From Glycera tridactyla (Eukaryota), in assembly GCA_965644265.1 (NCBI GenBank), contig OZ286475.1, forward strand, positions 76,632,001-76,696,000: a stretch of DNA of 64,000 nucleotides. Direction: 5' to 3'. How positions within the stretch are numbered: the first letter of the stretch is position 1; each line of letters begins with the position of its first letter. Made by a program: the position numbers and the translations under genes. Below are positions 28,746 through 52,709 of the stretch, piece by piece. Under the pieces are notes generated by a model. It ran no database searches. It was given only the letters and a program-made list of their open reading frames with translations, and had not been told where the DNA came from.

Positions 28746-28767
28746 CGTCACGAGCGGCAGCTTCCGG

Positions 28768-29940
28768 TTGATGACGGAGGCGCTACACTATTACATTGCA
28801 ACACAACAGTTGAATCGGGCCATGGACCTGGTCGCCGAGGCCCTTTCAGAACCCCGGAGAGGAAAGATTTGCGGGAGCGATAAAGTGTCGCCCCAAAGGA
28901 GGGAGATGGAGATCGGGCTCTCGGCACAGTTAAAGAACTACGTCCCGATCAATCTCAACGACTTCGAGCGAGACGACAGTGAAGACGACAGCGCCTCCGC
29001 GGAGGACGGCAATCCCATAGACCACCTCACGAGATGGATGTGGGAGATGAGATACGAGTTTCTCATGGTATTCGTCTATCATCTCCTGAGCCACGGGCCG
29101 CTGCCGGGCTATATTTGTTGGGAGCACGTCGCCAACCTGGTCACGATGGCAAGGGAATTCCCTAAAAACATGCACTGGACAACCAGATGTTGGTGCGAGG
29201 TAGAGCACGACCTCGAGAAATACCCAACACTGAACGAAGCCATCTGTTCAAAAATGACGACGGATTCGGAAATTTGGCGGGAGAAACGTGAGCGCTGTGG
29301 ATGCGCCACCCTAAAGGGCCCGCTTCGAAATGACATTCTGGAAGACGCTCTCACATATCTCGTAAAGGAGAGAAAGGAGTACAGCGAGGCGCCAGAACAA
29401 CTGGTGATGAACATGGCTTTTGGCCTGTATCAGTACTTCACCAAGTTGAACCGGGAGACCAAAGTTAACAGGCTGGCCATCAACGAACTGGCGGCACTCT
29501 CTATAGAGCAGACACTGGCCCTCTGCATTCCAAACCCGCTACGCGCGGAGGAACACACGGTCAAGTCGACTCGGCGATGGACTCCCGCCGGCGACCTCCT
29601 GGGAATGGAATGGAAACTGTACCCAAAAGCATGGTGTAGCCTCATGACGGAGCTACAAACAAACCGCCTGCTAATGACTCAGGAGGACGCGAACGGGGGG
29701 TTTCTCGGACTTGGAAAACACCTTCACGCCCACCTCATTCTGACAGAGATCCCGTTCCAATGTAGAATGCAAGATGGACACGTGACTGACGACAGCGACG
29801 ATGACGACAGCGACGACGACGACGACGACATACCGATGAAACCAGACGTGTACTCCGCCAAGAGATTGGCGTGTGCAGAGACCCGACTCAATAAGAAATC
29901 TGTTATAAATAGTTCGGAGTCGGCGCTCCACCGTTCGTAA
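28768..29940 (+). CDS. Orphan viral protein, 390 aa
   Basis: Long ORF with normal composition and an acidic tail; ATG at 28771. No family recognised. Confidence 0.75.
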   Translation: MMTEALHYYIATQQLNRAMDLVAEALSEPRRGKICGSDKVSPQRREMEIGLSAQLKNYVPINLNDFERDDSEDDSASAEDGNPIDHLTRWMWEMRYEFLMVFVYHLLSHGPLPGYICWEHVANLVTMAREFPKNMHWTTRCWCEVEHDLEKYPTLNEAICSKMTTDSEIWREKRERCGCATLKGPLRNDILEDALTYLVKERKEYSEAPEQLVMNMAFGLYQYFTKLNRETKVNRLAINELAALSIEQTLALCIPNPLRAEEHTVKSTRRWTPAGDLLGMEWKLYPKAWCSLMTELQTNRLLMTQEDANGGFLGLGKHLHAHLILTEIPFQCRMQDGHVTDDSDDDDSDDDDDDIPMKPDVYSAKRLACAETRLNKKSVINSSESALHRS

Positions 29941-31484: not shown

Positions 31485-31671
31485 GGTTGAGAGAGATTAG
31501 AGAGAATTCTGGTTCTTACCCTTAGGTTCTATCGACTATTAGGCACAGAGGACACAAATAAATGGGTCATCGTTATCATCATATATAGATTTATTTTTAA
31601 ATGTACACGGTTACAAGAGACACACATATTAATAAAATAGTTAGAGTCCAGATGAGGATTTGAACCATCTC

Positions 31672-33555
31672 CTATTCTGAATAGCTGCCCTCGCTTTCGC
31701 TATCACTCGTGGACTCGCTATCACTCGCGGATTCGCTTTCGTATTCGCTCTCGTATTCGCTCTTGTTCGTGGTGGTGGTGCTGCTGTCCTTCCCCTTGGT
31801 ATTGCTTTTGTTCTTATTCTGGTCCTCCTTTTTATGTAAGGGAGATCTCGCGCGTACCTGAACCCTGGAGTCGATGGAAGTTTCCTTCTTTATGATATTG
31901 AGGTCTGTCCTATCAACGACTTGTTGGTCGGGTTTGAATGGAGCGGCGTTTAGATCCTGAGTAAACTCGACTGCATTATTGGAGGTCACCGCCATCTTTG
32001 TTTTAATTCGGGGATCCATGTTCATCCCGGCGTCGCCATTCAACCTCATTTTTTTGCTTGAAGTCGCCTCTTCTTCTTCTTTTTGTTGTTTTAGTTTCCT
32101 CTTCGATGATGATGATGCCGCTGACGCAGGTTGGGCCTCGACCCCATTTGTCTTTTCAGTATCGAGGGTAACCATACCGGTGTTCACCCACTCGTCTCTT
32201 CTACGTTTTAGTTCCTCCGTCACATGGTCCGTGACCTTCTGGAAATCGGGGAAAAGTGAGGGATCGCAGCGTCCTCGATGGAGCGCGGATCCAATGGTCC
32301 TCGGGACCAACTTGAAAGTCTGGCCGTTGTGGTGTATCGGTTTGGACAGATAGGGAGTTGTCTCCATGAATTGTTGAGTCCAATACAAACAGGGTGGCAT
32401 ATTCCCATGATACATGGAGCCCTTGCCGTCCTCCTTGGTCACACATTTTGGTAGATGGTAGAATAGGTTGCCGATTACTCGCACGAGGTCATACTTGATG
32501 TTTTTGAACGTAGAGGGGGAGGAGGCGTAGACATTTATCGATGCGTGTTCCCGGTGAATCTCGGGGTCGTAAACGTAATCGGTATTATCGGTTTGATGGA
32601 AACAGAAGATACTCTTCTTCGTCTGTTTCTTTTTTGTAGCTGTCTCGTTGACGGAGCTCTCCTTACTGGATCCCTCTCCCTTCTCCTCCTCCTTCTCCTT
32701 TTTCATTTTTTTAAACTTTGAAGATTGCTCCGACTTGATTTTCCACTCCGGCGCTTTCAGTTCGGCAATAACGGGGGATTTCGAGTTCCTCCCTTCCACC
32801 CCTCTCTTTTCATAGGTGTAGGTGAACAAGAGATTGTAGTTTGCACCCTGAGCGTAAATTTTACCTTGTAGGTTATGCTCTATCGCCGGAATGTATATCT
32901 TCGCGGAGATTTTTACATTTGTTTCGGGTTTTTCGTTTTTCAGGATCTCCTCGTATTTGGAGATCTCGTCCGTCAGACTCTTAAAACTCGTGGCCTTGTC
33001 TCGCTCTTTAATGCAGATGTAGACAATGTAGTTGGGAGCGTTCTCTTCTTCTTTTTTAACACTCTTCGGTTTTAGGAGAATCAACATGTTGACCTTGGAC
33101 TGCCCCATGTTTTTCCAGGGTATGGTTGCGGCGAGTGTTTTACGGAGGTGCTCCTCAAACTCAGCCTCGGTTGTTTTATCGGCATTCTTGATCCTGATGT
33201 GGAGAACAAATCGTTTCCTGTCAGAACCGTTCGTCGATATGCCCCGGGCGGCAAATTCATATCCGATGAACTTTTCCACAAACTGTTGAATGGCGAGGTT
33301 CGGAGCGATCTCCGATATCTGAATGGGTTTGTACTTCTCGGCCATTTTGTTCTTTTCTGCGACTTCCTCTGTCTCCTTTGGTTCTTTTTCAGCGGGCTCC
33401 GAGTCTGTAATACTGGAAACTATATTCGCCATGTCCTGAGAAACTGATGAATCGGCGCTTAATTTATCTTCACTAGCTGTAACGTCACCGCTACTGCCGT
33501 CGCTGCTGACATCGTCGTTGCTGTTGTTGTTGTTGCTGTCACCGAAAGGCCACAT
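31672..33555 (-). CDS. Orphan viral protein, 627 aa, Lys-rich with acidic Ser/Glu repeat tail
   Basis: Long ATG-initiated ORF; AATAAA on the minus strand at ~31588 downstream of the stop. Confidence 0.82.
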   Translation of the reverse strand: MWPFGDSNNNNSNDDVSSDGSSGDVTASEDKLSADSSVSQDMANIVSSITDSEPAEKEPKETEEVAEKNKMAEKYKPIQISEIAPNLAIQQFVEKFIGYEFAARGISTNGSDRKRFVLHIRIKNADKTTEAEFEEHLRKTLAATIPWKNMGQSKVNMLILLKPKSVKKEEENAPNYIVYICIKERDKATSFKSLTDEISKYEEILKNEKPETNVKISAKIYIPAIEHNLQGKIYAQGANYNLLFTYTYEKRGVEGRNSKSPVIAELKAPEWKIKSEQSSKFKKMKKEKEEEKGEGSSKESSVNETATKKKQTKKSIFCFHQTDNTDYVYDPEIHREHASINVYASSPSTFKNIKYDLVRVIGNLFYHLPKCVTKEDGKGSMYHGNMPPCLYWTQQFMETTPYLSKPIHHNGQTFKLVPRTIGSALHRGRCDPSLFPDFQKVTDHVTEELKRRRDEWVNTGMVTLDTEKTNGVEAQPASAASSSSKRKLKQQKEEEEATSSKKMRLNGDAGMNMDPRIKTKMAVTSNNAVEFTQDLNAAPFKPDQQVVDRTDLNIIKKETSIDSRVQVRARSPLHKKEDQNKNKSNTKGKDSSTTTTNKSEYESEYESESASDSESTSDSESEGSYSE

Positions 33556-34621
33556 TTTTAAAATTGTCTTCTATGTGACTAATTACGGCATTTTGCGATA
33601 AATGCGGTTCCCAAATAACACAAGAAAAAGTCCCAGTGTTGTTGATCGAGCTATATTTAGAAATATCGCATGGAAACACGCCGTCTCCCCAATCATGGAA
33701 GGGCATCTTTCCTGTAATCTCGCCCCCTCCCGCCTCATCCTCCGATAAGATCCGACCCCACGCGGAAACATGGTAATTTTCCGCTACGACTTTCCCACAG
33801 AAGATCGGAGCCCCGGTGAAGAGAAATCGGTCACTGTTATCCGGGTCAAGCATCACGTGCGTTCTGGTCTCGCCCACTTGTATGGTTTCGAACTCTAACA
33901 GGATCCTCTCGACATCAAGGTCGTCTAGGACACTGGATATGTCAAGTCTATCGAGATCATCCGATAAGATTAGGCCACTTGTCTCGTTAATAATTCTCTT
34001 AATTAAACTTTCTGTCGAATGAAACAACATTGGTAAATCCGACAGCTCCAATTCGAGGTTCTCCCACTCGTATTCTAGACCGGGCAAGTGAAGTCGAGGA
34101 AAAAGTGACTCTTTCAAGTCGGCTCGTTTTCCGAGTTGGTTGATGATTTTGAGAACATCGCCAGCCTGATTCGAAACATATTTAATCTCACCGCCGCTCT
34201 TTCGCATTTGGATATTTTGAAGACGGTAGTACGCGTTGAAGGCATGTTCTAATTCTTTCTTGAGGATGCGAAGACGCGAATTTCGTCGCTCGGGGGATCC
34301 TTTGGGCACGGGTTTTTTTAATTGATGAATCTGAATAAAAATCTTGATGACGAGATAGATGAACTTTTGCACCTCCCTCCCCCAATTTAAATATGCGGCG
34401 AAGGAGTCGGACGTGCAGTTCCTCAGGATCGAAGATGATATCTTTGAAGTGGCGGGCGGATTCCTTGTCTCTATCCTCTTGACCTCGATATCGAGACATG
34501 CCGACACACTAATATGTGCCGCGTGATCAGCGAATCCTCGCTCATGTATAAAGTCCACATGGTCGGACATTCCGATTCTCGCGTCCGATAATTGGTTAGA
34601 GGGGGGCGATAAGGCCGTCAC
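33539..34621 (-). CDS. Orphan viral protein, up to 360 aa
   Basis: Long ORF whose stop overlaps the 627-aa start by 17 bp. The true start is probably the internal ATG (MSDHVDF). Confidence 0.75.
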   Translation of the reverse strand: MTALSPPSNQLSDARIGMSDHVDFIHERGFADHAAHISVSACLDIEVKRIETRNPPATSKISSSILRNCTSDSFAAYLNWGREVQKFIYLVIKIFIQIHQLKKPVPKGSPERRNSRLRILKKELEHAFNAYYRLQNIQMRKSGGEIKYVSNQAGDVLKIINQLGKRADLKESLFPRLHLPGLEYEWENLELELSDLPMLFHSTESLIKRIINETSGLILSDDLDRLDISSVLDDLDVERILLEFETIQVGETRTHVMLDPDNSDRFLFTGAPIFCGKVVAENYHVSAWGRILSEDEAGGGEITGKMPFHDWGDGVFPCDISKYSSINNTGTFSCVIWEPHLSQNAVISHIEDNFKNVAFR

Positions 34622-34659
34622 GTGATGAGGCCACGTGGGTTTTATGGTGTCCTATATAA
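34619..34659 (+). promoter_or_regulatory. Pol II promoter: two CACGTG E-boxes plus TATATAA
   Basis: CACGTG at 34619-34624 and 34632-34637; TATATAA at 34653-34659. Followed by an ATG-free leader ending in a strong AG|GTGAGT donor. Confidence 0.68.
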
Positions 34660-36348
34660 CTTCAGTCGGGGATCCTCTGCGGAATCGATCCATTCGGGAC
34701 TGGACGACTAACAAGCTTCACCGCCACTAATCACCAGCACTTCGCGGAGCTCTCTGTCTCTGATTTCTTTGTCAGTGGAGCCTCATCCGAGAATCAAACA
34801 AGGGAAGATCCAATCGCGAGGAAAGCGGGATCGCCGATCGATACTTCTTAACAGAGAGATCCATATATAAGGTGAGTTATCGTTTATAAAAACACTTCAA
34901 AGGACCTGGGCAAACATGCGGCCACCTGATTGTTCACACAGGGGGGCTCGATCCCCGATAAAGGGGTTTCTCGGTTCTCACCGTTATCGTCGCCGCCGCC
35001 GCTTCTCACGATCATCATTGTCCTTGTCGCCATGATTGTCCTTGTCGCCGTCGCTCCCGTTCCCCGTTTTGAAGATGGAGGAATATTCAACGGGGTCGAA
35101 TTTGGCTTTACATATGATATCCAATGTGGCTCTCATTATGAAAACCAGAGTATTACACTCTCATGTCGGCGATAACTATAGCGATATCGAGGATTCTTTG
35201 ACTACTAGTAGTGGTGGTGACTCTGGTACTACCGAAAGTAACGGGAGCAATAGCAACGGAGGCCATTTTTATGAACCGGAGAGCGGAAAATTATGCGAGG
35301 ATCACTTTAACTGTAGAGAGTCTCGACTGGTTTTTCTTCGGGGATTCTTTAACGGAGGAAAACATGGTTCCCAAAACACGGATGCGTGAGAGTGCTTATA
35401 TTTACTCCGATTAGTCTATGTATTCGGAAGCTCTTATCTATCTATCTGTCTATCTATCTTTTTGTTTATGTTGCTCTTTATCTGTCTATCTATCCTATCT
35501 ATTTACCTGTCTATTTATCCATCTATCCGCCCATCTACCTACCCATCCATCCATCCATCCATCCATCCATCTACCATCTGTCCATATATTCGTGCCCCCC
35601 TGATCTAATTTTCCTCGTTTCTTTTTCTAATCTTATAGTTGTGGCTGTGTTATTGACGAATATCGGGGAAAGGAGGAAGTAGAAGAGAACGAAGAGGCGA
35701 ACGAGTGGTCCCGCGTTCTACAGTATTTGCGGATAAGCTCCACCTCCATAAAACTTCATCGCCGAGGACTTCGTTCCGGAGAGAAAGTTTTGGCCGGGTC
35801 CGTTGACGGTCTTTATCCGCCCAAAGGATCAGCGGACTTCATCTCGCTAGTTCGACTCCAGACGGTCAACTTACCTTCTGCTCAATCATCGAGGCCGTCG
35901 CCCCCGCCGTCACCCTTCGTTCATGTGCCGACCCCTTTTAGCGCCGCCCGGCGCCCAGTGGAGCGACACGTGGAGAGAATGCAAAACGGTCACGTCACAC
36001 TGAGTCCAAGGAAATCGGATATCTTGATATCTACAGCAATACAGGCTGTTACAGGTAGTGTCAATCACGGGTCTGAAAATACCAGGACGACTAGTCAGAA
36101 CTACGCAGTTATTAGATCTATACTTAATGGGAAATCGCTCAACGATAAAACAACAACACATAAGAGTACCACCCCTAATAATAGTGTCGGTGCTCTCAAC
36201 GGAACTTTTGTCGGGGACGAGGATCTAAGAAGAAGTATTTTTTTTGGTCTTGGTGGCTCCCCTATCGACTTTATTACAGGCGATCTGGAACTTTCGGGGA
36301 GCGCGCTGTCATCATCGGTCTCAAACGATAGGCTGTATTATCATTGTC

Positions 36349-36383
<35 letters not shown>

Positions 36384-36675
36384 GCAATTTATTCAACAAC
36401 GAACCAACTAACAGAAATATATCCAACACAGGTAGAGACAATACCCACACAGGTAGAAGACATATTGCGTAGCGCGATGGATGGTGCAGGTATTGGTGCA
36501 GGAGAGACCATGTTACCTGCGGAGACATTAAGTAATCAAACAATCAATCAATCGGAACTGGATAGTATTTTATCAAATGTGTCTTTTCCAGAGTTCCTCG
36601 ACTTCGCATCACTTCAACCTCTTGGCGACAATAATCTTACTCAAACAATAATACCGCCACCACCACCACAACCAC

Positions 36676-36709
<34 letters not shown>

Positions 36710-39302
36710 CAGTTGGCCAGTGGGAACTCAACCCACAATGGCTCCAAGGAAAGACATTGAGAAATCAGTAGCGGGCAACCAAACACCACCCACAGAAACA
36801 CCACAGAGACCAATATCAAACAAACAAATAGCGAGCAAAACAAAACCCAAATCACCAACACCGCCATCATCTCCAAACAAAACCATACCAAGAAACACTA
36901 AAGAGGGGGATTCTGATAACTTTTCTGACGACGTGCTAACCCTACATCCAGAAGGGGATTGGGATGCGAGTGGTGGTGGTGGTGGTGCTGGTGGTGATGA
37001 CGACCACAATGATAGTGTTGTCGTTTCTGGTTCTGTTCATATCGGGGACAAGTTCTCGGGTGTCGAACCACATCGGTCGAAGAAATCGGGGGGGAAGAAG
37101 AAACGGGGTGTCTCCAAACCAAAGGGGGGTGGGGAATCATCATCATCCTCCTCCAAACCAGACTCGACTTCGAAGAAGGACTCGGGTAGGAAAAGGACTA
37201 GCGAGTCCGCTTCCTCTCCGTCCGAATCGCCTATTAAAGTGTCGTCACCGAGAGGGTTAGAAACCCCACCGGGGAGCGGAAAAACCACGCGGCGAGAAAA
37301 AAAAGAAAATCGAATTCTTCTTCCGAAGATAGACCGGAGGATAAAACGAAGGCCCCTAAAAGAAAAAGGAACCAGAAGGAAGTGTGCGAAAATAGCTTCC
37401 TAGAGAACACTCCCGCGTCAGGAATATCTCGACTATACCTAAGATACCAAAGAAGACGTCGGGTACGTCATCGTCTTCTACTTCTACCCAACAGGCCTCT
37501 ATCACTTCACTGATCTATAAATCTCCTTTGACCCCACAAGAGGAAGTTTCCGAAAATTGTTTCGAATCCCCCACGACGATGAGGCCACGTGGGTTTTATG
37601 GTGTCCTATATAACTTCAGTCGGGGATCCTCTGCGGAATCGATCCATTCGGGACTGGACGACTAACAAGCTTCACCGCCACTAATCACCAGCACTTCGCG
37701 GAGCTCTCTGTCTCTGATTTCTTTGTCAGTGGAGCCTCATCCGAGAATCAAACAAGGGAAGATCCAATCGCGAGGAAAGCGGGATCGCCGATCGATACTT
37801 CTTAACAGAGAGATCCATATATAAGGTGAGTTATCGTTTATAAAAACACTTCAAAGGACCTGGGCAAACATGCGGCCACCTGATTGTTCACACAGGGGGG
37901 CTCGATCCCCGATAAAGGGGTTTCTCGGTTCTCACCGTTATCGTCGCCGCCGCCGCTTCTCACGATCATCATTGTCCTTGTCGCCATGATTGTCCTTGTC
38001 GCCGTCGCTCCCGTTCCCCGTTTTGAAGATGGAGGAATATTCAACGGGGTCGAATTTGGCTTTACATATGATATCCAATGTGGCTCTCATTATGAAAACC
38101 AGAGTATTACACTCTCATGTCGGCGATAACTATAGCGATATCGAGGATTCTTTGACTACTAGTAGTGGTGGTGACTCTGGTACTACCGAAAGTAACGGGA
38201 GCAATAGCAACGGAGGCCATTTTTATGAACCGGAGAGCGGAAAATTATGCGAGGATCACTTTAACTGTAGAGAGTCTCGACTGGTTTTTCTTCGGGGATT
38301 CTTTAACGGAGGAAAACATGGTTCCCAAAACACGGATGCGTGAGAGTGCTTATATTTACTCCGATTAGTCTATGTATTCGGAAGCTCTTATCTATCTATC
38401 TGTCTATCTATCTTTTTGTTTATGTTGCTCTTTATCTGTCTATCTATCCTATCTATTTACCTGTCTATTTATCCATCTATCCGCCCATCTACCTACCCAT
38501 CCATCCATCCATCCATCCATCCATCTACCATCTGTCCATATATTCGTGCCCCCCTGATCTAATTTTCCTCGTTTCTTTTTCTAATCTTATAGTTGTGGCT
38601 GTGTTATTGACGAATATCGGGGAAAGGAGGAAGTAGAAGAGAACGAAGAGGCGAACGAGTGGTCCCGCGTTCTACAGTATTTGCGGATAAGCTCCACCTC
38701 CATAAAACTTCATCGCCGAGGACTTCGTTCCGGAGAGAAAGTTTTGGCCGGGTCCGTTGACGGTCTTTATCCGCCCAAAGGATCAGCGGACTTCATCTCG
38801 CTAGTTCGACTCCAGACGGTCAACTTACCTTCTGCTCAATCATCGAGGCCGTCGCCCCCGCCGTCACCCTTCGTTCATGTGCCGACCCCTTTTAGCGCCG
38901 CCCGGCGCCCAGTGGAGCGACACGTGGAGAGAATGCAAAACGGTCACGTCACACTGAGTCCAAGGAAATCGGATATCTTGATATCTACAGCAATACAGGC
39001 TGTTACAGGTAGTGTCAATCACGGGTCTGAAAATACCAGGACGACTAGTCAGAACTACGCAGTTATTAGATCTATACTTAATGGGAAATCGCTCAACGAT
39101 AAAACAACAACACATAAGAGTACCACCCCTAATAATAGTGTCGGTGCTCTCAACGGAACTTTTGTCGGGGACGAGGATCTAAGAAGAAGTATTTTTTTTG
39201 GTCTTGGTGGCTCCCCTATCGACTTTATTACAGGCGATCTGGAACTTTCGGGGAGCGCGCTGTCATCATCGGTCTCAAACGATAGGCTGTATTATCATTG
39301 TC

Positions 39303-39337
<35 letters not shown>

Positions 39338-39629
39338 GCAATTTATTCAACAACGAACCAACTAACAGAAATATATCCAACACAGGTAGAGACAATACCC
39401 ACACAGGTAGAAGACATATTGCGTAGCGCGATGGATGGTGCAGGTATTGGTGCAGGAGAGACCATGTTACCTGCGGAGACATTAAGTAATCAAACAATCA
39501 ATCAATCGGAACTGGATAGTATTTTATCAAATGTGTCTTTTCCAGAGTTCCTCGACTTCGCATCACTTCAACCTCTTGGCGACAATAATCTTACTCAAAC
39601 AATAATACCGCCACCACCACCACAACCAC

Positions 39630-39663
<34 letters not shown>

Positions 39664-40533
39664 CAGTTGGCCAGTGGGAACTCAACCCACAATGGCTCCA
39701 AGGAAAGACATTGAGAAATCAGTAGCGGGCAACCAAACACCACCCACAGAAACACCACAGAGACCAATATCAAACAAACAAATAGCGAGCAAAACAAAAC
39801 CCAAATCACCAACACCGCCATCATCTCCAAACAAAACCATACCAAGAAACACTAAAGAGGGGGATTCTGATAACTTTTCTGACGACGTGCTAACCCTACA
39901 TCCAGAAGGGGATTGGGATGCGAGTGGTGGTGGTGGTGGTGCTGGTGGTGATGACGACCACAATGATAGTGTTGTCGTTTCTGGTTCTGTTCATATCGGG
40001 GACAAGTTCTCGGGTGTCGAACCACATCGGTCGAAGAAATCGGGGGGGAAGAAGAAACGGGGTGTCTCCAAACCAAAGGGGGGTGGGGAATCATCATCAT
40101 CCTCCTCCAAACCAGACTCGACTTCGAAGAAGGACTCGGGTAGGAAAAGGACTAGCGAGTCCGCTTCCTCTCCGTCCGAATCGCCTATTAAAGTGTCGTC
40201 ACCGAGAGGGTTAGAAACCCCACCGGGGAGCGGAAAAAACCACGCGGCGAGAAAAAAAAGAAAATCGAATTCTTCTTCCGAAGATAGACCGGAGGATAAA
40301 ACGAAGGCCCCTAAAAGAAAAAGGAACCAGAAGGAAGTGTGCGAAAATAGCTTCCTAGAGAACACTCCCCGCGTCAGGAATATCTCGACTATACCTAAGA
40401 TACCAAAGAAGACGTCGGGTACGTCATCGTCTTCTACTTCTACCCAACAGGCCTCTATCACTTCACTGATCTATAAATCTCCTTTGACCCCACAAGAGGA
40501 AGTTTCCGAAAATTGTTTCGAATCCCCCACGAC
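34624..40533 (+). repeat. Head-to-tail tandem duplication (34624-37577 and 37578-40533)
   Basis: Offset 2954 throughout. Junction ...CCCCCACGAC|GATGAGGCC. Copy 1 lacks one A (37280-37284) and one C (37412-37414). Confidence 0.96.
35075..37577 (+). pseudogene. Truncated and frameshifted copy of the spliced IE-like gene
   Basis: Same exons and introns as 38029-41725 (introns 34872-35074 and 35386-35638), but with two 1-nt homopolymer deletions and cut by the duplication junction. Confidence 0.82.
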
Positions 40534-41725
40534 AATAGAAAACGTTACGCACTCTATTCTCAAATCAAGGTCCAAGTCTAGCGCCCATTCTCCACCTCGG
40601 TCTCGTTCTCCTTCCCCTTGTTCTTCCCACTCCTCCTCCTCTTGTTCTCCGAGCCGAAGCCACGATCGAAGCCGAGGTAAAAGCCGAGCTAGAAGCCGAG
40701 CTAGAAGCCGAAGCCAAGATAGAAGTCGAGGTAAAAGCCGAGCTAGAAGCCGAAGCCAAGATAGAACCCAAGATAGAAGCCGAGGTAGAAGCCAAGGTAG
40801 AGCCCGAGGTAAAAGCCGAGCTAGAAGCCGAGATAGAAGTCCAAGCCGAAGCCGAGGACGAAGCATGGGGCCGGAAAGTCGTTCGAATCGCTCTAAGAGT
40901 ATGAGTCGCCATACCGACTCTCATGAGGAGAGAAACCATCATCATCGCCGTGATTGTCGCCGTCGTTATGACGATAATGATGATCGCCGGTATCGCGGTC
41001 GTCGTGATGCTGGTGATAGTTGGCATCGTTCGGATCGTGGGGGGCGCCGGTGTCCTGAAATCGATCAATTTCGAAGTCACATGCGGTCTTTCTGGCAAAG
41101 GGATGGGGGGCGAAGCCACAGTTTTGTAGATTGGAATAGAAGAGGGGAGCGTTCCTTTAGAGAAGGACCAAGTCAAGCACGTTCGGACCACGAATACGAC
41201 TTCGACGATCAGAGCTACGATTGGAGAAACAGATACGGTTTATCTCTTAGTTACGAAGACTATTTAGCCTGGTATCGTTTTCAATCCCAATCTCAGAGTC
41301 ATCATCAGGTGTTGGGGTCGAGACAAGATTCCTCAGTTTGTTACTCCCCACATTCGTCTCTAGATTCGCATCGTCGGCGTTCCCAACAGTCAGACAATTA
41401 TTTTCACGGACAGTCTCACGAATATCCACGACCTTCAGAATTTTCACAATGGCAACCAGAACATCACCACCACCACCCCCTCACTCAGTATCCAAATCAG
41501 GCTCCACAGCCACAGCCACAACTACAACCACCGCCACCGCTACAACCACAATCCCGTGTACATTACAATCCCAATTTCATTCCACAGGAGAACCATGCCC
41601 AGAGAGAGAATCAAAATCAGACCCCAGATCAGTGGTTACGCGGGCCGAACGGTAGAGATGAGGTGGAATCATCGGAGATACCGAGATATTATACGCATAA
41701 ACAAGAGGCACGGGAGACAACATAG
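38029..41725 (+). CDS. Spliced immediate-early-like regulatory protein, ~1147 aa (poly-Q/P/S, basic NLS-like stretches, RS-repeat domain)
   Basis: Exon 38029-38339 joined via GT-AG intron 38340-38592 (polypyrimidine tract, CTAAT-like branch site) in frame to 38593-41725; 3444 nt = 1148 codons. A leader intron 37826-38028 ends immediately before the ATG. The regulatory function is inferred. Confidence 0.8.
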
Positions 41726-42218
41726 TCGCCTGTATAATCCTTCCCGTGGTATCGATGTTATGTGTGTATGTATGTATATACTATTTTGTGATCGCATGTA
41801 TCGAATGTTACGTCATGTTGTGTTATAACCTCTGTAGAGCTTCTCGGGTAGTCTCATTCACACATATGTAGAGAGACGTTTATATAAACTACTAAAACAA
41901 CTCTTTTCTCTTGTGTTTTTATTTTACCGGTATTTGTTCATAGATATTATTATCATCATCATCGCCATCCCTCTGCACCTATTTGATGACCCCCCTCCTC
42001 TTAATTTGTTTTGGGCCTAGAGAGTTAACCTACACTCCGTGACCCACTTGCCTCGTTCCAGAAGGAGGTGTAGACCTGACACAGATTGAGATGGAAGGCG
42101 TATAAGAACTAAACATTCGCCTTTGGGGATTTAGATGAGGATAGAAGAACGGGGAATCGAGTCTTAACAACAACAACTCCCTTCTCAGTATCATTATTTT
42201 AGACGGAGGAACGGGCTT

Positions 42219-44573
42219 GTGATGGCAGCAACCACACATAATGACCCTAACGGGGACATGGCGTGTATCTGGTTGTACCCGGCAGAGTTCTTAACGAAAG
42301 ACGAGCGAATGTTAGGTCAGCAGACAATCTTCCCGTACATGATCAAAAAGATCTTGAAGTTCGGCCCGGTATCCGAATTTTTCACCGATGCTTACAAAAC
42401 CCGACAACTGGTTCGCGTCGATCTTCGGGCCACCAGTAAACTAGCCGAGGATGAAGAGGCTTTGAGAAGAACGACGTTGAACTCGGTCCTACTGGACAAC
42501 AATCCCAAACACGGGAAACCGAACATGGTCGTACTTTGCGATAAGTATCTGCGCCGGCTCCTGAGTATTCTCCTGACTGTGTTTAAATGGAATCAGAGGC
42601 ACATCCACGACAAGGAAATCTATGAAGACATGTTAAAAGTTAAAAGGAACGTGCCGGGGGAAGAATTCGAAAACCTCTCCTTGCTTTCTAAACACAGTTA
42701 TGTGTTTCACGCCCGTTCCAAAGACTTCTTCCACATATCCGGAAACATTTCGGATTCTTATTCGATCTTGGAGCGCCTCGTGGGCAACAAGCTGGTCCCC
42801 TGGTGGTCTACCGCATTTTGGACCAATCTAGATATCGAGGGCATATCCGAGAGCAAAATCTTAAATAAACTGAGGTCGGAGTTTTCAGATTTAGTGAGGC
42901 TCTTTGAGAACTATAACCCTATCCCCGAGGGTTCTTACAGCGCCAACAATGAGCGGGTTTCCATGCCCCTGCAGATTGGTATGCACGTGCACGAAAACCT
43001 CGCACTCCAGCTGATTTCCGACGCTCACATTTACACGAAAGAGGACTGCGCTGGCGGAAAGACCAGAGTGGTGTTTAAGAAACCCGGGCGAACCATTCTT
43101 CCCGGCGGGCTCGTGGGAGCGACCCCAGACGTGGTGGTTTATTTCGCCGATAAACACACCGAAGAAACGGCGATGAATATCGAAAGAGAGGAGGAGGACG
43201 ATCACAGTTGCTTTGATAACTGGGACTGGTCGAACGATCACGAATTCGAACAGGAGGAAGCACCCGCGCCTAACCCGAACGAACATAAACCCTCCAGAAT
43301 ACCCCAATACATATACGAGTTGAAAACACTGACTAGGCGCAGGCTTTCTACCGAATCCATTAAAACCAAGCTCGACGAGTACTACATTGAACACACGTTA
43401 TGCAATGAGGGCGATTCGTCCAGTTTTATTTGGGTAGAAAGCCAAGGAGAGGCGCCCTACTATCACATAACATTGAACGAAGCCGAATCGCTAGGAATCT
43501 ACAACAAAGAGTTGAAGCAGAAAAAGGAGGAGGAGGAAGGGACTGACGCGGATCGTTGTTTTTCGTCGGCCATGAGGGCTGCGTCTCTGGTCATTCACTA
43601 TTTGGACGAGCCCCTACTCCTCCGACCCCCTATGCTAAAACTGAGTTCTGCTCCGCCGAACGCCAAACTCAACGACAAGTATGTCTTCAACCCAGAGAGC
43701 AGAGAAAAAATCTACGATAGAAAAATGAAGACAATGAAAACCGAGGGAGCCCAAAAGGGCTGTTCCTGTGGAGCGATCACAAATCCCTTTTTCCGGGGAT
43801 CCGACTTCCTATCGGCGCGTGTGACAAAAGAAGAAAACGCGAGGATCCAGGGACACCCCTCGCCCATCTGGAAGAAGCTTGAGGCCGGAGGCGATGTTGG
43901 AGATCGGGTCGATTTGAGTAAACATCAACACGGAGCGAACAGACAGCCGACCGAATACAGTAAATTTGACGATCCCCACGTTCTTCTTGCTCACATGGGG
44001 GAACACCGATACATTCTCCCCTGGGATAGTGTCGATGTTGGACATCACGGCTTCATCGGGGACACTCTCAACCCGAGGGCAAAATCTCGATGTGTGCTGT
44101 ACTCTTACGCCGAACCTCTTCAAAAATACGCCGTTATCGATTACGAGGTAGCCCCCTACGTCCTATCGCCAACGTCCGATTACTTCAAACAGATTCTACA
44201 GGAGGTTAACGCGTATCAACAGCTCAACGAGGAAATCCGAGCCTTCATAACGATCGTCTTCTTGTATCGAACCGAATCGGATGATGTCAGTGTAGAGTCG
44301 AATAGAGTGGCGGCAACTTACACGACGGAGGTTCGGATCACAAAAGCAATGATGGCGGTTTACACGGCGAACGTGATTTCTCAGGTTTTTCGAGAACACC
44401 AAGCGATCATTCGTTACTGCAAACAAGACCTCTATCCGGACTCCTGGTCGCACTCTGAGAAGAAAGAGCAGCGGAACCGCGAGCGAAAAACCGTCCAAAT
44501 GTACAAGCCTTTTCTGGACGAACTCGTCGAGGCCCTCCACAACACTAGGACGGAAACGTTTATAATGGGATAG
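42219..44573 (+). CDS. Alkaline exonuclease-like PD-(D/E)xK nuclease, herpesvirus UL12/BGLF5-type, 784 aa
   Basis: Ordered motifs LQIGMHVHENLA, GLVGATPDVVV, YIYELKT and SPTSDYFKQILQE, the last resembling the herpes NPRHPNFKQIL motif as I recall it. ATG at 42222. Confidence 0.8.
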   Translation: MMAATTHNDPNGDMACIWLYPAEFLTKDERMLGQQTIFPYMIKKILKFGPVSEFFTDAYKTRQLVRVDLRATSKLAEDEEALRRTTLNSVLLDNNPKHGKPNMVVLCDKYLRRLLSILLTVFKWNQRHIHDKEIYEDMLKVKRNVPGEEFENLSLLSKHSYVFHARSKDFFHISGNISDSYSILERLVGNKLVPWWSTAFWTNLDIEGISESKILNKLRSEFSDLVRLFENYNPIPEGSYSANNERVSMPLQIGMHVHENLALQLISDAHIYTKEDCAGGKTRVVFKKPGRTILPGGLVGATPDVVVYFADKHTEETAMNIEREEEDDHSCFDNWDWSNDHEFEQEEAPAPNPNEHKPSRIPQYIYELKTLTRRRLSTESIKTKLDEYYIEHTLCNEGDSSSFIWVESQGEAPYYHITLNEAESLGIYNKELKQKKEEEEGTDADRCFSSAMRAASLVIHYLDEPLLLRPPMLKLSSAPPNAKLNDKYVFNPESREKIYDRKMKTMKTEGAQKGCSCGAITNPFFRGSDFLSARVTKEENARIQGHPSPIWKKLEAGGDVGDRVDLSKHQHGANRQPTEYSKFDDPHVLLAHMGEHRYILPWDSVDVGHHGFIGDTLNPRAKSRCVLYSYAEPLQKYAVIDYEVAPYVLSPTSDYFKQILQEVNAYQQLNEEIRAFITIVFLYRTESDDVSVESNRVAATYTTEVRITKAMMAVYTANVISQVFREHQAIIRYCKQDLYPDSWSHSEKKEQRNRERKTVQMYKPFLDELVEALHNTRTETFIMG

Positions 44574-44601
44574 AGGCTTAAGGAGGCGGTTTTTAATATA
44601 T

Positions 44602-45270
44602 TTGTGTATCTATTTGTGTATCCATTCTCGCAAAGCTCTATCGGACCCGCTGTACACGTGGTCCCTCTCCTGTCCGCTGAGCGTATCTAAGATCATCAGA
44701 ACCGTGACCCCGTGCAACAGGTGCATAATAAAGGTGGACTGCGGGTGTCTTCTCCAGGCGCCCGGCGAATTCTACATTCCGCTTCAGGTAGCCGACTGCG
44801 ACCTGTCCACGACGCCGGCCGAGCCAACGATCGTCCCCGCCTACCCGGTAAACTTACCGGTCCTGCACTCTCTGTACAGCGCGGATCAACTCGACGATAT
44901 TCGCGGCAGCTCCGTCAAGGACGACTGGAACAACATAGACATTCCAGAATTTGAGCCGTTCGGGTACGAGTGGAATCAAACGGCGCAGGTTAGCGAAAAA
45001 TATTCTTCCGATCTAAAGAAACTAGCGGAGGAGAGCAGCAAACGAGCGGAGGTCTACCACACAAAGGCGGACGCGATGTTAAAAGAGGCAACGGATTTCA
45101 CTGACTTGAGTCTCAGCCACGCCAAAGATCTGGAGGAAAAGTTTGGCGATCTCAGTTGGTTGGGCACTCTGAATTTCGACACGGCCCAGGCCGGCGGTAT
45201 CATCGGCATAATCATAGTAACTCTGACCTTCATAATGGGCATATATAACTGTTGGCGGGTCACCAGATAG
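44602..45270 (+). CDS. C-terminal part of a class I viral fusion glycoprotein (baculovirus F/env-like); 3' exon or remnant
   Basis: PCNRCIIKVDCGC...FYIPLQVADC...YPVNLPVLHSL Cys pattern, helical stem and C-terminal TM (GGIIGIIIVTLTFIMGIY). No N-terminal ATG; possible splice acceptor at 44634-44635. Confidence 0.62.
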   Translation: MCIYLCIHSRKALSDPLYTWSLSCPLSVSKIIRTVTPCNRCIIKVDCGCLLQAPGEFYIPLQVADCDLSTTPAEPTIVPAYPVNLPVLHSLYSADQLDDIRGSSVKDDWNNIDIPEFEPFGYEWNQTAQVSEKYSSDLKKLAEESSKRAEVYHTKADAMLKEATDFTDLSLSHAKDLEEKFGDLSWLGTLNFDTAQAGGIIGIIIVTLTFIMGIYNCWRVTR

Positions 45271-45307
45271 TAGATTGTCGTCGTCGGATTGCTGAAGGCG
45301 CGTCGAA

Positions 45308-46957
45308 ATGGCCTCTCCGCGGCGCTCCGAAAATGACACTCAGATAGACTACGATACCTACGTGGATTTCATTCTAGAAAACAAAATAGACATAATCTCG
45401 GCGTTTGGAAACACGAGGTACCCGTTCATCCCAAACGAACTCACCGTTTTAGATCCCCTCTCTCAAGGCAACATTCACTTCCAGATAAAGAAGATTTTCG
45501 AGGAGTACCAACGAAAAGGCTGGATCGGCAAGAATCTCCGATACGTTTCCTCGGGACTGATTTCTAAAAAGGGGCTGATCCTGCCGTGTTCAGAGAAAGT
45601 AATCACGGGGCCCGGCGGAGGCCTGACTCTAACGTTCACCAGAGCCCCCGAGGTGGTCATGGGGAAACTGGCCAACCTCTTTTATTTTAAAGACCAAGTA
45701 AACGTCTCGACGGGTAAACGGACCCGCTACGTCAAAGATAGACTCCAAGATCCAACTCTTTATTACGCCATCCTTCAATTGTGTTTTCTACTACAGAGGG
45801 CTTGGAATCCGCCGAATCCGGGCACCGCTCACCCCTTTCGTAAAATCATCTCCGCTCTAGACTTTTTATTCAAGAAGCACACCTCCGCCGATCGCCTGGA
45901 GGAAAAAGAACATCTGCATTACATCCTAGAGAACATTCGGTTCAGCTCCGGCAAGATACTGCGCCGCTTCAACACGTTTCCGTTCAAGAGTCGCTATTCC
46001 TTCATTCACAAGTTCAACACGGAGACCAAACGTTTAAGTCTGGAATTCATAAACGAAGGAGCTCTGCTCCAGATAGCGGACGGGATCAAGCTGACCGAAA
46101 TTCTCCACGCCGAGGAACCCGACATCAACTTCGCGCGTCGCCAAAGCGTCATGGAAGACATCTTAAACACCTCCACGGGACTATCCAGCGAGAACTTGAT
46201 GCAATTGATACAGACCATTCTCCTGATGATGACCAGCGGTCGGGGGGAGACAAACTATCGGGAGTGGGGGGACCTCTCGAAGATTACCGCAAGAACAAAA
46301 GACTACGTGGATCAGGACATGCAGCTGCTGATCGTCAAACTCTCTGCGGCTCTTCGCTCTCGGATCAAAAATAAAATGATACAGTTGAATCACGAGAAGT
46401 GCACCTGCATGGCCAAGTGCGTCGGTCAGGAAATGGGAGCCCATCCGGAACTGACGAATCACTTCATCGACACGATTCACCCAACCTACCATTCGACCCT
46501 CAAGTGCGGCTTCTGCAATCTCTCCAACAGTTTGGAAAACACCACCTCGCAGAGGCCGCGAAAAGTGATCACGCAAGAACAACCCCAGTACCTTTCCTGC
46601 TCGTTGGACGGTTCCACAACGATCTACGCGGAACCCCTCTATTCGTTTAACTACAAACGAGACCCCCACAATCCGTCGGCGCCGATAACAAATGTCTCTG
46701 CTCCGTTTTTCCTTTACCTCACGAGCGTCTGTAACGTCTACGAGGAAACGAAAAAATCCCCGCGGAGTTCTTCCACAGGACGTTTTCTAACCGCCTGTTA
46801 CGGAAATAGACTCTGCGCTCAACGAGTGACGAATAAACTGGCTTCCTTCCTCAACAGCACGAAAGAAAACTCCTCGTCGAACTTCATGCAGAGTCCGCAG
46901 TGGTGGCAGTGTATATCGTGCGAAAACCTTTTAAAGGAGAAGCCCTCTCTGGGTTGA
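45308..46957 (+). CDS. Cys-rich (putative Zn-binding) viral protein, 549 aa, C-terminus cut by the inversion junction
   Basis: Good-context ATG; CTCMAKC, CGFC, CYGNRLC and CISC clusters. The last residues and the stop come from the inverted block starting at 46945. Confidence 0.78.
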   Translation: MASPRRSENDTQIDYDTYVDFILENKIDIISAFGNTRYPFIPNELTVLDPLSQGNIHFQIKKIFEEYQRKGWIGKNLRYVSSGLISKKGLILPCSEKVITGPGGGLTLTFTRAPEVVMGKLANLFYFKDQVNVSTGKRTRYVKDRLQDPTLYYAILQLCFLLQRAWNPPNPGTAHPFRKIISALDFLFKKHTSADRLEEKEHLHYILENIRFSSGKILRRFNTFPFKSRYSFIHKFNTETKRLSLEFINEGALLQIADGIKLTEILHAEEPDINFARRQSVMEDILNTSTGLSSENLMQLIQTILLMMTSGRGETNYREWGDLSKITARTKDYVDQDMQLLIVKLSAALRSRIKNKMIQLNHEKCTCMAKCVGQEMGAHPELTNHFIDTIHPTYHSTLKCGFCNLSNSLENTTSQRPRKVITQEQPQYLSCSLDGSTTIYAEPLYSFNYKRDPHNPSAPITNVSAPFFLYLTSVCNVYEETKKSPRSSSTGRFLTACYGNRLCAQRVTNKLASFLNSTKENSSSNFMQSPQWWQCISCENLLKEKPSLG

Positions 46958-48425
46958 AGACATACTTGTCGTTGAGTTTGGCGTTCGGCGGAGCAGAACT
47001 CAGTTTTAGCATAGGGGGTCGGAGGAGTAGGGGCTCGTCCAAATAGTGAATGACCAGAGACGCAGCCCTCATGGCCGACGAAAAACAACGATCCGCGTCA
47101 GTCCCTTCCTCCTCCTCCTTTTTCTGCTTCAACTCTTTGTTGTAGATTCCTAGCGATTCGGCTTCGTTCAATGTTATGTGATAGTAGGGCGCCTCTCCTT
47201 GGCTTTCTACCCAAATAAAACTGGACGAATCGCCCTCATTGCATAACGTGTGTTCAATGTAGTACTCGTCGAGCTTGGTTTTAATGGATTCGGTAGAAAG
47301 CCTGCGCCTAGTCAGTGTTTTCAACTCGTATATGTATTGGGGTATTCTGGAGGGTTTATTTTCGTTCGGGTTAGGCGCGGGTGCTTCCTCCTGTTCGAAT
47401 TCGTGATCGTTCGACCAGTCCCAGTTATCAAAGCAACTGTGATCGTCCTCCTCCTCTCTTTCGATATTCATCGCCGTTTCTTCGGTGTGTTTATCGGCGA
47501 AATAAACCACCACGTCTGGGGTCGCTCCCACGAGCCCGCCGGGAAGAATGGTTCGCCCGGGTTTCTTAAACACCACTCTGGTCTTTCCGCCAGCGCAGTC
47601 CTCTTTCGTGTAAATGTGAGCGTCGGAAATCAGCTGGAGTGCGAGGTTTTCGTGCACGTGCATACCAATCTGCAGGGGCATGGAAACCCGCTCATTGTTG
47701 GCGCTGTAAGAACCCTCGGGGATAGGGTTATAGTTCTCAAAGAGCCTCACTAAATCTGAAAACTCCGACCTCAGTTTATTTAAGATTTTGCTCTCGGATA
47801 TGCCCTCGATATCTAGATTGGTCCAAAATGCGGTAGACCACCAGGGGACCAGCTTGTTGCCCACGAGGCGCTCCAAGATCGAATAAGAATCCGAAATGTT
47901 TCCGGATATGTGGAAGAAGTCTTTGGAACGGGCGTGAAACACATAACTGTGTTTAGAAAGCAAGGAGAGGTTTTCGAATTCTTCCCCCGGCACGTTCCTT
48001 TTAACTTTTAACATGTCTTCATAGATTTCCTTGTCGTGGATGTGCCTCTGATTCCATTTAAACACAGTCAGGAGAATACTCAGGAGCCGGCGCAGATACT
48101 TATCGCAAAGTACGACCATGTTCGGTTTCCCGTGTTTGGGATTGTTGTCCAGTAGGACCGAGTTCAACGTCGTTCTTCTCAAAGCCTCTTCATCCTCGGC
48201 TAGTTTACTGGTGGCCCGAAGATCGACGCGAACCAGTTGTCGGGTTTTGTAAGCATCGGTGAAAAATTCGGATACCGGGCCGAACTTCAAGATCTTTTTG
48301 ATCATGTACGGGAAGATTGTCTGCTGACCTAACATTCGCTCGTCTTTCGTTAAGAACTCTGCCGGGTACAACCAGATACACGCCATGTCCCCGTTAGGGT
48401 CATTATGTGTGGTTGCTGCCATCAC
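46884..48425 (-). pseudogene. Inverted, C-terminally truncated nuclease copy 1 (513 aa)
   Basis: Identical N-terminus through ...KYVFNPE, then an antisense-derived tail. Keeps the TPD and ELK motifs and lacks the FKQIL motif. Confidence 0.88.
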
Positions 48426-48988
48426 AAGCCCGTTCCTCCGTCTAAAATAATGATACTGAGAAGGGAGTTGTTGTTGTTAAGACTCGATTCCCCGTTCTTC
48501 TATCCTCATCTAAATCCCCAAAGGCGAATGTTTAGTTCTTATACGCCTTCCATCTCAATCTGTGTCAGGTCTACACCTCCTTCTGGAACGAGGCAAGTGG
48601 GTCACGGAGTGTAGGTTAACTCTCTAGGCCCAAAACAAATTAAGAGGAGGGGGGTCATCAAATAGGTGCAGAGGGATGGCGATGATGATGATAATAATAT
48701 CTATGAACAAATACCGGTAAAATAAAAACACAAGAGAAAAGAGTTGTTTTAGTAGTTCTTCTTTATATAAACGTCTCTCTACATATGTGTGAATGAGACT
48801 ACCCGAGAAGCTCTACAGAGGTTATAACACAACATGACGTAACATTCGATACATGCGATCACAAAATAGTATATACATACATAGATAGAACCCAAGATAG
48901 AAGCCGAGGTAGAAGCCAAGGTAGAGCCCGAGGTAAAAGCCGAGCTAGAAGCCGAGATAGAAGTCCAAGCCGAAGCCGAGGACGAAGC

Positions 48989-50354: not shown

Positions 50355-52709
50355 GTGATGGCAGCAACCACACATAATGACCCTAACGGGGACATGGCGT
50401 GTATCTGGTTGTACCCGGCAGAGTTCTTAACGAAAGACGAGCGAATGTTAGGTCAGCAGACAATCTTCCCGTACATGATCAAAAAGATCTTGAAGTTCGG
50501 CCCGGTATCCGAATTTTTCACCGATGCTTACAAAACCCGACAACTGGTTCGCGTCGATCTTCGGGCCACCAGTAAACTAGCCGAGGATGAAGAGGCTTTG
50601 AGAAGAACGACGTTGAACTCGGTCCTACTGGACAACAATCCCAAACACGGGAAACCGAACATGGTCGTACTTTGCGATAAGTATCTGCGCCGGCTCCTGA
50701 GTATTCTCCTGACTGTGTTTAAATGGAATCAGAGGCACATCCACGACAAGGAAATCTATGAAGACATGTTAAAAGTTAAAAGGAACGTGCCGGGGGAAGA
50801 ATTCGAAAACCTCTCCTTGCTTTCTAAACACAGTTATGTGTTTCACGCCCGTTCCAAAGACTTCTTCCACATATCCGGAAACATTTCGGATTCTTATTCG
50901 ATCTTGGAGCGCCTCGTGGGCAACAAGCTGGTCCCCTGGTGGTCTACCGCATTTTGGACCAATCTAGATATCGAGGGCATATCCGAGAGCAAAATCTTAA
51001 ATAAACTGAGGTCGGAGTTTTCAGATTTAGTGAGGCTCTTTGAGAACTATAACCCTATCCCCGAGGGTTCTTACAGCGCCAACAATGAGCGGGTTTCCAT
51101 GCCCCTGCAGATTGGTATGCACGTGCACGAAAACCTCGCACTCCAGCTGATTTCCGACGCTCACATTTACACGAAAGAGGACTGCGCTGGCGGAAAGACC
51201 AGAGTGGTGTTTAAGAAACCCGGGCGAACCATTCTTCCCGGCGGGCTCGTGGGAGCGACCCCAGACGTGGTGGTTTATTTCGCCGATAAACACACCGAAG
51301 AAACGGCGATGAATATCGAAAGAGAGGAGGAGGACGATCACAGTTGCTTTGATAACTGGGACTGGTCGAACGATCACGAATTCGAACAGGAGGAAGCACC
51401 CGCGCCTAACCCGAACGAAAATAAACCCTCCAGAATACCCCAATACATATACGAGTTGAAAACACTGACTAGGCGCAGGCTTTCTACCGAATCCATTAAA
51501 ACCAAGCTCGACGAGTACTACATTGAACACACGTTATGCAATGAGGGCGATTCGTCCAGTTTTATTTGGGTAGAAAGCCAAGGAGAGGCGCCCTACTATC
51601 ACATAACATTGAACGAAGCCGAATCGCTAGGAATCTACAACAAAGAGTTGAAGCAGAAAAAGGAGGAGGAGGAAGGGACTGACGCGGATCGTTGTTTTTC
51701 GTCGGCCATGAGGGCTGCGTCTCTGGTCATTCACTATTTGGACGAGCCCCTACTCCTCCGACCCCCTATGCTAAAACTGAGTTCTGCTCCGCCGAACGCC
51801 AAACTCAACGACAAGTATGTCTTCAACCCAGAGAGCAGAGAAAAAATCTACGATAGAAAAATGAAGACAATGAAAACCGAGGGAGCCCAAAAGGGCTGTT
51901 CCTGTGGAGCGATCACAAATCCCTTTTTCCGGGGATCCGACTTCCTATCGGCGCGTGTGACAAAAGAAGAAAACGCGAGGATCCAGGGACACCCCTCGCC
52001 CATCTGGAAGAAGCTTGAGGCCGGAGGCGATGTTGGAGATCGGGTCGATTTGAGTAAACATCAACACGGAGCGAACAGACAGCCGACCGAATACAGTAAA
52101 TTTGACGATCCCCACGTTCTTCTTGCTCACATGGGGGAACACCGATACATTCTCCCCTGGGATAGTGTCGATGTTGGACATCACGGCTTCATCGGGGACA
52201 CTCTCAACCCGAGGGCAAAATCTCGATGTGTGCTGTACTCTTACGCCGAACCTCTTCAAAAATACGCCGTTATCGATTACGAGGTAGCCCCCTACGTCCT
52301 ATCGCCAACGTCCGATTACTTCAAACAGATTCTACAGGAGGTTAACGCGTATCAACAGCTCAACGAGGAAATCCGAGCCTTCATAACGATCGTCTTCTTG
52401 TATCGAACCGAATCGGATGATGTCAGTGTAGAGTCGAATAGAGTGGCGGCAACTTACACGACGGAGGTTCGGATCACAAAAGCAATGATGGCGGTTTACA
52501 CGGCGAACGTGATTTCTCAGGTTTTTCGAGAACACCAAGCGATCATTCGTTACTGCAAACAAGACCTCTATCCGGACTCCTGGTCGCACTCTGAGAAGAA
52601 AGAGCAGCGGAACCGCGAGCGAAAAACCGTCCAAATGTACAAGCCTTTTCTGGACGAACTCGTCGAGGCCCTCCACAACACTAGGACGGAAACGTTTATA
52701 ATGGGATAG
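50355..52709 (+). CDS. Alkaline exonuclease-like nuclease, full-length copy 2
   Basis: Same as 42219-44573 except H>N (base 51420). Confidence 0.8.
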   Translation: MMAATTHNDPNGDMACIWLYPAEFLTKDERMLGQQTIFPYMIKKILKFGPVSEFFTDAYKTRQLVRVDLRATSKLAEDEEALRRTTLNSVLLDNNPKHGKPNMVVLCDKYLRRLLSILLTVFKWNQRHIHDKEIYEDMLKVKRNVPGEEFENLSLLSKHSYVFHARSKDFFHISGNISDSYSILERLVGNKLVPWWSTAFWTNLDIEGISESKILNKLRSEFSDLVRLFENYNPIPEGSYSANNERVSMPLQIGMHVHENLALQLISDAHIYTKEDCAGGKTRVVFKKPGRTILPGGLVGATPDVVVYFADKHTEETAMNIEREEEDDHSCFDNWDWSNDHEFEQEEAPAPNPNENKPSRIPQYIYELKTLTRRRLSTESIKTKLDEYYIEHTLCNEGDSSSFIWVESQGEAPYYHITLNEAESLGIYNKELKQKKEEEEGTDADRCFSSAMRAASLVIHYLDEPLLLRPPMLKLSSAPPNAKLNDKYVFNPESREKIYDRKMKTMKTEGAQKGCSCGAITNPFFRGSDFLSARVTKEENARIQGHPSPIWKKLEAGGDVGDRVDLSKHQHGANRQPTEYSKFDDPHVLLAHMGEHRYILPWDSVDVGHHGFIGDTLNPRAKSRCVLYSYAEPLQKYAVIDYEVAPYVLSPTSDYFKQILQEVNAYQQLNEEIRAFITIVFLYRTESDDVSVESNRVAATYTTEVRITKAMMAVYTANVISQVFREHQAIIRYCKQDLYPDSWSHSEKKEQRNRERKTVQMYKPFLDELVEALHNTRTETFIMG

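Follow-up and report, generated by a model that had tools for sequence, protein, structure and literature searches.

What does the open reading frame at positions 42219-44573 encode, and why is it present several times over at a single locus? The window, the whole stretch of DNA analysed here, comprises 64,000 nucleotides of contig C42 of the Glycera tridactyla genome. On its plus strand, the frame stays open over 784 codons, with GTG as the first codon and an ATG at 42222. The reading that we favor, at a probability of roughly two in three, is that this intact frame, with three whole and three truncated inverted copies in a rearranged viral insert, likely encodes a 5′-to-3′ alkaline exonuclease of a virus that is deeply divergent and probably of herpes type, and that the extra copies were probably carried along passively.

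Comparison of frames and copies in the window agreed with a genome-wide search (2.04 Gb, 207 contigs), in which the 784-aa gene gave six matches from nine candidates, all at the C42 locus. The predicted count of three full and three truncated copies was thereby borne out, and the truncated ones proved to be inverted and cut after residue 493. The other copies differ from copy 1 by 1-2 nt. The full copies follow one another every 8,136 bp, and the third truncated copy starts 697 bases past the right window edge (Table 1). Each repeat unit consists of a 6.2-kb direct segment followed by an inverted 1.9-kb piece that holds the region upstream of the gene and its first 1,481 nt. Units 2 and 3 follow unit 1, and neighbours differ by four bases (1 versus 2) and one base (2 versus 3).

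The numbers of units and of gene copies are those of the genome assembly, and the threefold repeat could in part be an assembly artefact, a reading compatible with every other one considered here. We regard this as unlikely: the single difference in 5,510 bases between units 2 and 3 would suit it, but units 1 and 2 are distinguished by their four differences, the junctions at the ends of the array are distinct, and a second insert on contig C11 (see below) has a different repeat pattern of its own. At window positions 43284, 46975 and 47360, the full and inverted copies in unit 1 have exchanged base variants when compared with units 2 and 3; this reflects either exchange between repeats or an assembly error. 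A low-complexity frame of 1,046 aa, containing Arg-Ser repeats, runs from 38585 to 41725, and the junctions at 40750 and 40759 lie less than 10 bp apart in its repeat.

Table 1. Features of the window (strand given as a point where none applies).
Feature	Coordinates	Strand	Basis
Full copy 1, likely alkaline exonuclease (784 aa from GTG)	42219..44573	+	frame list, copy comparison
Full copy 2; 1 nt different from copy 1	50355..52709	+	copy comparison
Full copy 3; identical to copy 2	58491..60845	+	copy comparison
Inverted truncated copy 1: residues 1-493 + 20 unrelated residues; Y655..Q658 motif missing	46884..48425	-	
Inverted truncated copy 2: residues 1-493 + 20 unrelated residues	55020..56561	-	
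Inverted truncated copy 3: residues 1-493 + 20 unrelated residues; start outside the window at C42:76696697	63156..64000	-	
Repeat unit 1: direct segment 40759-46945 + inverted copy of 41767-43699	40759..48883	.	copy comparison
C-terminal part of membrane glycoprotein; paralog of 851-aa frame in C11 insert (E 3e-17)	44566..45270	+	
549-aa frame without database match; stop codon inside fold-back junction	45296..46957	+	
Putative motif I (W201..S212)	42816..42860	+	MAFFT alignment, pattern search
Putative E259 helix motif + T302-P-D304 motif; collinear with YqaJ/lambda family	42975..43139	+	MAFFT, hhalign
Putative E367-x-K369 motif, 3′ of 62-aa acidic spacer	43311..43328	+	pattern search
Putative Y655..Q658 motif; 285 aa beyond ExK	44178..44204	+	pattern search
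Left arm of viral insert: inverted copy (99.3-99.8%) of DNA outside the window; two deletions, 2,954-bp tandem duplication	27517..40750	.	
(GAT)24 tract, left insert end; joined to host 91-bp tandem repeat	27517..27588	+	

We then considered the protein itself. The four motifs on which the original prediction was based, IGMHVHENLA, VGATPDVVV, YELKT and DYFKQILQE, are all found in that order, at residues 253-262, 299-307, 365-370 and 654-662. The protein contains a motif chain of the lambda-exonuclease type: W201..S212, E259, T302-P-D304, E367-x-K369 and Y655..Q658. The last motif may resemble the alphaherpes form. The motifs had also been described as separated by long acidic insertions. This description fits the spacer between D304 and ExK (62 aa, 27% D+E) and does not fit the other three of the four spacers; the 285-aa spacer before the last motif has 15% D+E, the average of the protein.

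How easily could such a chain arise by chance? The protein has the catalytic residues in their proper sequence (E ... PD ... ExK), yet this bare pattern was also found in 554 of 10,000 shuffles, whereas each of two fuller motif patterns was found in none of 10,000. The five-motif pattern occurs in 103 of 120 homologs of the YqaJ type and in lambda exonuclease, and among the 75 frames of at least 250 aa it is confined to three, namely the full copies. As these patterns were composed after viewing the protein, their chance rates are optimistic. A chain of five blocks was reached by 3 of 1,000 shuffles on order alone and by none of 1,000 when spacing limits were applied, and the protein ranked first among 65 frames; the PD block contributed 15.6 of the 32.8 bits, and the E and ExK blocks were placed elsewhere than proposed.

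The set of YqaJ-type proteins used here was the best 120 of 229 collected with one host frame that matches PF01771; this host frame matches lambda exonuclease and LHK exonuclease in the PDB. When residues 170-400 were aligned by MAFFT with 21 YqaJ-type proteins, motif I, the E motif and the PD motif were collinear over ~ 135 residues. When residues 170-740 were aligned with 28 homologs, the homologs were instead placed on the C-terminal half. Unguided hhalign against the YqaJ-type family picked residues 250-308, with an E-value of 0.024 for the whole protein and a probability of 2-5%. Feature neighbours in the ESM Atlas were HSDR_N and VRR-NUC clusters at 0.77-0.85, which serve as leads only; we take both clusters to belong to the PD-(D/E)xK clan.

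Searches by overall similarity were negative. We detected no homolog of the 784-aa protein in Pfam (Exo5 and PDDEXK_1 included), PHROGs or the PDB (solved UL12, BGLF5 and SOX chains included), in the phage, IMG/VR and metagenome scans, among 7,992 scored candidates of a set of 5.8 billion or among 1.84 billion representatives. The two profile comparisons gave no support either: the herpes profile PF01771 has 56 matching places in the genome, none of them at this gene, and the YqaJ profile (121 sequences, the 120 proteins plus lambda exonuclease) scored the protein at −1.4 bits, a value equally high in 200 of 456 scored shuffles. The 56 places are in host DNA, and the loci that we read are YqaJ-type nucleases, some of them adjoining transposase-like frames. 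Fold prediction from the single sequence was unusable (pLDDT 33.4). With the YqaJ alignment, the prediction reached a pLDDT of 53.6 and placed strands at the PD and ExK segments, although that alignment misplaced the ExK column; a Foldseek search with this fold returned no PDB or BFVD match at E ≤ 0.001.

Given these results, the protein might not be an active nuclease at all, the motifs being a chance set or the remnant of a fold now used otherwise. The missing profile and fold matches, the frequency of the bare catalytic pattern in shuffles and the Asp in place of the pocket Arg (see below) would agree with this, as would the spacer from the catalytic D to the E of ExK, which is 63 here compared with 10 in lambda exonuclease and 24 in UL12 according to the available part of PMC13521474. 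Against it, all five motifs are in order and three are collinear with the family, the motif pattern is unique to this gene among the 75 frames, and the Atlas neighbours, found without any alignment, fall in the PD-(D/E)xK group. We therefore consider a non-nuclease quite improbable. The order and spacing of the motifs, together with the weak language-model leads to PD-(D/E)xK clusters, argue that the 784-aa protein is probably, as judged from its sequence, a nuclease of the lambda-exonuclease type. If the motifs are read rightly, it is likely an unusually distant, new member of the lambda-exonuclease/UL12 kind.

Whether it belongs with UL12 itself is a separate matter. Motif I has Asp at position 205, a place taken by Arg in 117 of the 121 aligned family sequences. 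In a tentative alignment, the places of the 5′-phosphate pocket WRSS are occupied by W, D, S and T, and the WRSS set is thus unmatched. UL12 membership fails both the profile and the pocket tests and is not supported by the sequence, and we do not file the protein as UL12. Of the predicted UL12-like alkaline nuclease, the order and spacing of lambda-exonuclease-type motifs stood, while membership in the UL12/BGLF5/SOX group, for which there was no Pfam, PDB or PF01771 match and no confirmed fold, found no support. The gene had further been called the best taxonomic anchor in the window; since its motifs are common to phage and animal YqaJ-type proteins and no UL12 match was found, it is no such anchor.

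The surrounding DNA bears on the origin of the gene. Genes are densely packed in the right part of the window, which has a higher G+C content than the left part. Viral DNA on C42 extends over ~ 58 kb and, on the far side of a 52-kb host element that interrupts it, continues for ~ 32 kb more. Beyond the host element (C42:76776001-76802500) lie a 1,023-aa frame with both primase-like and SF2 helicase-like motifs (DEAD E 0.022), a multi-pass membrane protein, a caspase domain (E 6.7e-6), two short frames with P-loop-like motifs and a 1,271-aa capsid-sized frame that occurs once in the genome and has no Pfam or PDB match.

On the host side of the window (1306-2220, 8416-10752 and 15284-16760), we found a reverse transcriptase piece (E 1.2e-34), and there are local duplications at 24738-27329 and 22057-23533. 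The interrupting host element (C42:76718044-76770519) contains a long 512-bp tandem array, and we saw no coding frame in the element. Its first 2 kb have ~ 20 near-full matches (92-100%), and it is 99.5-99.9% like a 37-kb copy on contig C10. The element starts directly after a (GAT)n tract in six of six copies examined and ends at one in two of two, and it may target GAT microsatellites. Integration of the virus through (GAT)n tracts at both of its ends, in the manner of telomere-repeat integration, was considered and dropped, because viral genes resume past the right tract, which is that of the host element, and only the left end lies at such a tract. The viral GAT/ATC tract (window 27517-27588, L008:9583-9657, L030:550-580) has 24-25 pure units on C42, whereas on C11 it is short and impure; after it come a pyrimidine-rich stretch that ends in AG and an open frame, an arrangement that looks like an intron end. 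TTAGGG arrays are present at the end of one contig of the genome.

A sister insert of ~ 62 kb lies at C11:20286000-20348800, and the stretches common to it and C42 are 90-99% identical (92-99% in most). It contains a PF02499 herpes terminase C-terminal domain (E 9.5e-8, 31.8 bits against a cut-off of 22.8), and no other herpes family match came up among 46 insert frames and part-frames, in scans that also took in some host frames; the window itself has none. This terminase piece had no homolog by word search or in the PDB. The C11 insert further carries a primase-like frame of 1,539 aa, a membrane glycoprotein of 851 aa, a RING-finger protein and several long frames that match nothing, and it includes a 6,249-bp tandem unit and an inverted 834-bp terminase piece. 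The whole-genome search placed no copy of the nuclease gene in it. Family B DNA polymerase and herpes helicase had 17 and 19 matches in the genome, none of them in either insert, both of which are partial, and we saw no transposase families among the insert frames scanned.

As labelled by inspection, the 1,271-aa capsid-sized frame, the long membrane glycoproteins and the primase-like frame would fit a herpes-type gene set. The source of the inserts was probably, on sequence grounds, a very divergent herpes-type virus, the lineage being assigned from one terminase domain outside the window. Could the inserts stem instead from a large DNA virus of some other lineage, such as a mirusvirus-like one, whose terminase is related, so that the enzyme would be lambda-exonuclease-like and no UL12 ortholog? 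A single herpes family match among 46 frames and part-frames, a terminase piece without recognized relatives and a PD motif of YqaJ style would be compatible with such a source. We nevertheless find it distinctly improbable, as PF02499 exceeds its cut-off and the capsid-sized frame, glycoproteins and primase-like frame, which presumably suit a herpes-type set though they have no database match, point the other way.

Comparison of the C42 and C11 inserts gave mixed dN/dS values of 1.82 (425 codons), 0.42 (198) and 0.28 (217), and purifying selection on insert genes is not supported by them. In the N-terminal part of a shared 772-aa frame (L008:7214-9532 versus L030:631-1908), 44 nonsynonymous differences stand against 7 synonymous ones (dN/dS 1.82). 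Near a telomere, at C59:264900-276400, there is a distinct, broken large-virus-like element with a split family B polymerase and with frames that by inspection we take to be ATPase-like and dUTPase-like. Its intronless polymerase was considered as a part of the C42/C11 virus and rejected; it is broken and shares no viral DNA with the inserts.

We next asked what multiplied the gene. For the five junctions of which both parents are known, a count that leaves aside the fold-back junction at 46945, the parents share 1, 1, 0, 0 and 2 bp of sequence. Overlaps this short are more in keeping with end joining or template switching than with homology-directed annealing. As a recombinase-type nuclease, the enzyme had been proposed to be linked to the rearrangements; it might have driven them or been selected in them, acting as the exonuclease half of an exonuclease/annealase pair that caused the fold-backs and its own amplification. 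UL12 with ICP8 does promote single-strand annealing (PMC9324378, in the part available), all three full copies are intact, and a base that has changed places between full and inverted copies in unit 1, compared with units 2 and 3, suggests exchange between repeats. But annealing is homology-directed, and all five scorable junctions share no more than 2 bp; the C11 insert is scrambled alike at other genes without having a copy of the nuclease gene; and the insert frames yielded no annealing partner. A driving role for the enzyme is thus very improbable, and the proposed link was not supported. Because the same tandem and inverted scrambling affects other genes on C11 and the junctions share 0-2 bp, the doubling of the gene was probably incidental, the gene having been carried along by the scrambling without causing it. 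A fold-back would have joined the inverted 1.9-kb piece to the unit, which would then have been tripled.

How might the enzyme have worked in the virus? By analogy with the family, E259, D304 and E367 would bind two Mg2+ ions and K369 would position the attacking water, with W201, S212 and T302 lining the pocket for the 5′ end and Y655/Q658 gripping the DNA strand. The 62-aa and 285-aa spacers may loop out of the core, and Asp205 in place of the pocket Arg could weaken the dependence on a 5′ phosphate. With the catalytic residues retained but Y655..Q658 lost, the truncated copies are probably inactive. In the accessible parts of PMC9324378 and PMC13030845, alkaline exonucleases are given roles in end resection for annealing-based replication and in genome processing for packaging. 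The present enzyme may likewise have resected DNA ends to leave 3′ tails for annealing during virus replication and trimmed branched viral genomes ahead of packaging.

We found no published account of the C42 insert in a search of the literature outside subscription journals, and the supplements of the bioRxiv survey may list the genome. To our knowledge, the herpesviruses of invertebrates amount to two mollusc groups and a few inserts. Near-identical copies, long open frames and almost no relatives point to an unsampled, recently active lineage, whereas the copy number itself has little meaning. Tentatively, and with less than even odds, the two inserts could be recent, independent germline integrations of a herpesvirus lineage, maybe a fourth family, with a nuclease variant that lacks the 5′-phosphate arginine, has ~ 300 additional core residues and follows other end rules than UL12, SOX and lambda exonuclease. 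Should the protein prove to be an alkaline exonuclease, the role of the phosphate-pocket arginine could be studied in it as a natural test case, and it would extend the claim, made in the part of PMC13030845 at hand, that this enzyme is in the core set of the herpes order.

Among known enzymes, the protein resembles orthoherpesvirus UL12, BGLF5 and SOX (PF01771) in that motif I is followed by E, D and ExK and, late in the chain, by Y..Q, and in its herpes-like context. The available text of PMC13521474 lists E280, D340, E364, K366 and the WRSS pocket for UL12, and that of PMC3141240 lists a serine cluster, E184, K246 and Y373 for SOX. By these positions, the E-to-D spacing of 45 in the 784-aa protein is comparable with the 60 of UL12 (E280, D340), but D-to-E is 63 versus 24 in UL12, and K-to-Y is 286 versus 127 in SOX (K246, Y373). 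The protein also differs from this group in having Asp for the Arg and Thr for one Ser of WRSS, in its lack of a PF01771 or PDB match and in its length of 784 aa. With lambda exonuclease and the YqaJ-type proteins (PF09588, animal ones included), it shares G..HE, GA[ST]PD, the motif I spacing and Y..Q; it differs from them in a profile score that is not significant, in two long insertions, in being about three times as long and in the absence of CP after ExK.

The alkaline exonuclease of the alloherpesvirus SalHV-1, ORF45, is described in the accessible part of PMC13030845 as recognized by structure alone, and the present protein is like it, by that description, in not being recognizable at the sequence level. 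In malacoherpesviruses, as far as the available part of PMC5552708 describes them, the clan is represented by nucleases of the Exo5 or PDDEXK_1 family, and the 784-aa protein, which matches neither family, is set apart from these by description.

With regard to the inserts, Teratorn, an endogenous herpes-like virus of fish, is reportedly also chromosomal. Like the BelcheriHV-1, Capitella, starfish and ribbon-worm inserts in the available parts of PMC12373286, PMC5552708 and bioRxiv 10.1101/2025.04.19.649669, those on C42 and C11 are chromosomal, gene-dense and recent-looking. The known inserts, as these same parts have it, were found through similarity to known viruses, often of the DNA polymerase, whereas on C42 and C11 no polymerase was found and almost no gene has a homolog. 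Also unlike the known inserts, both are fragmented by tandem and inverted duplications.
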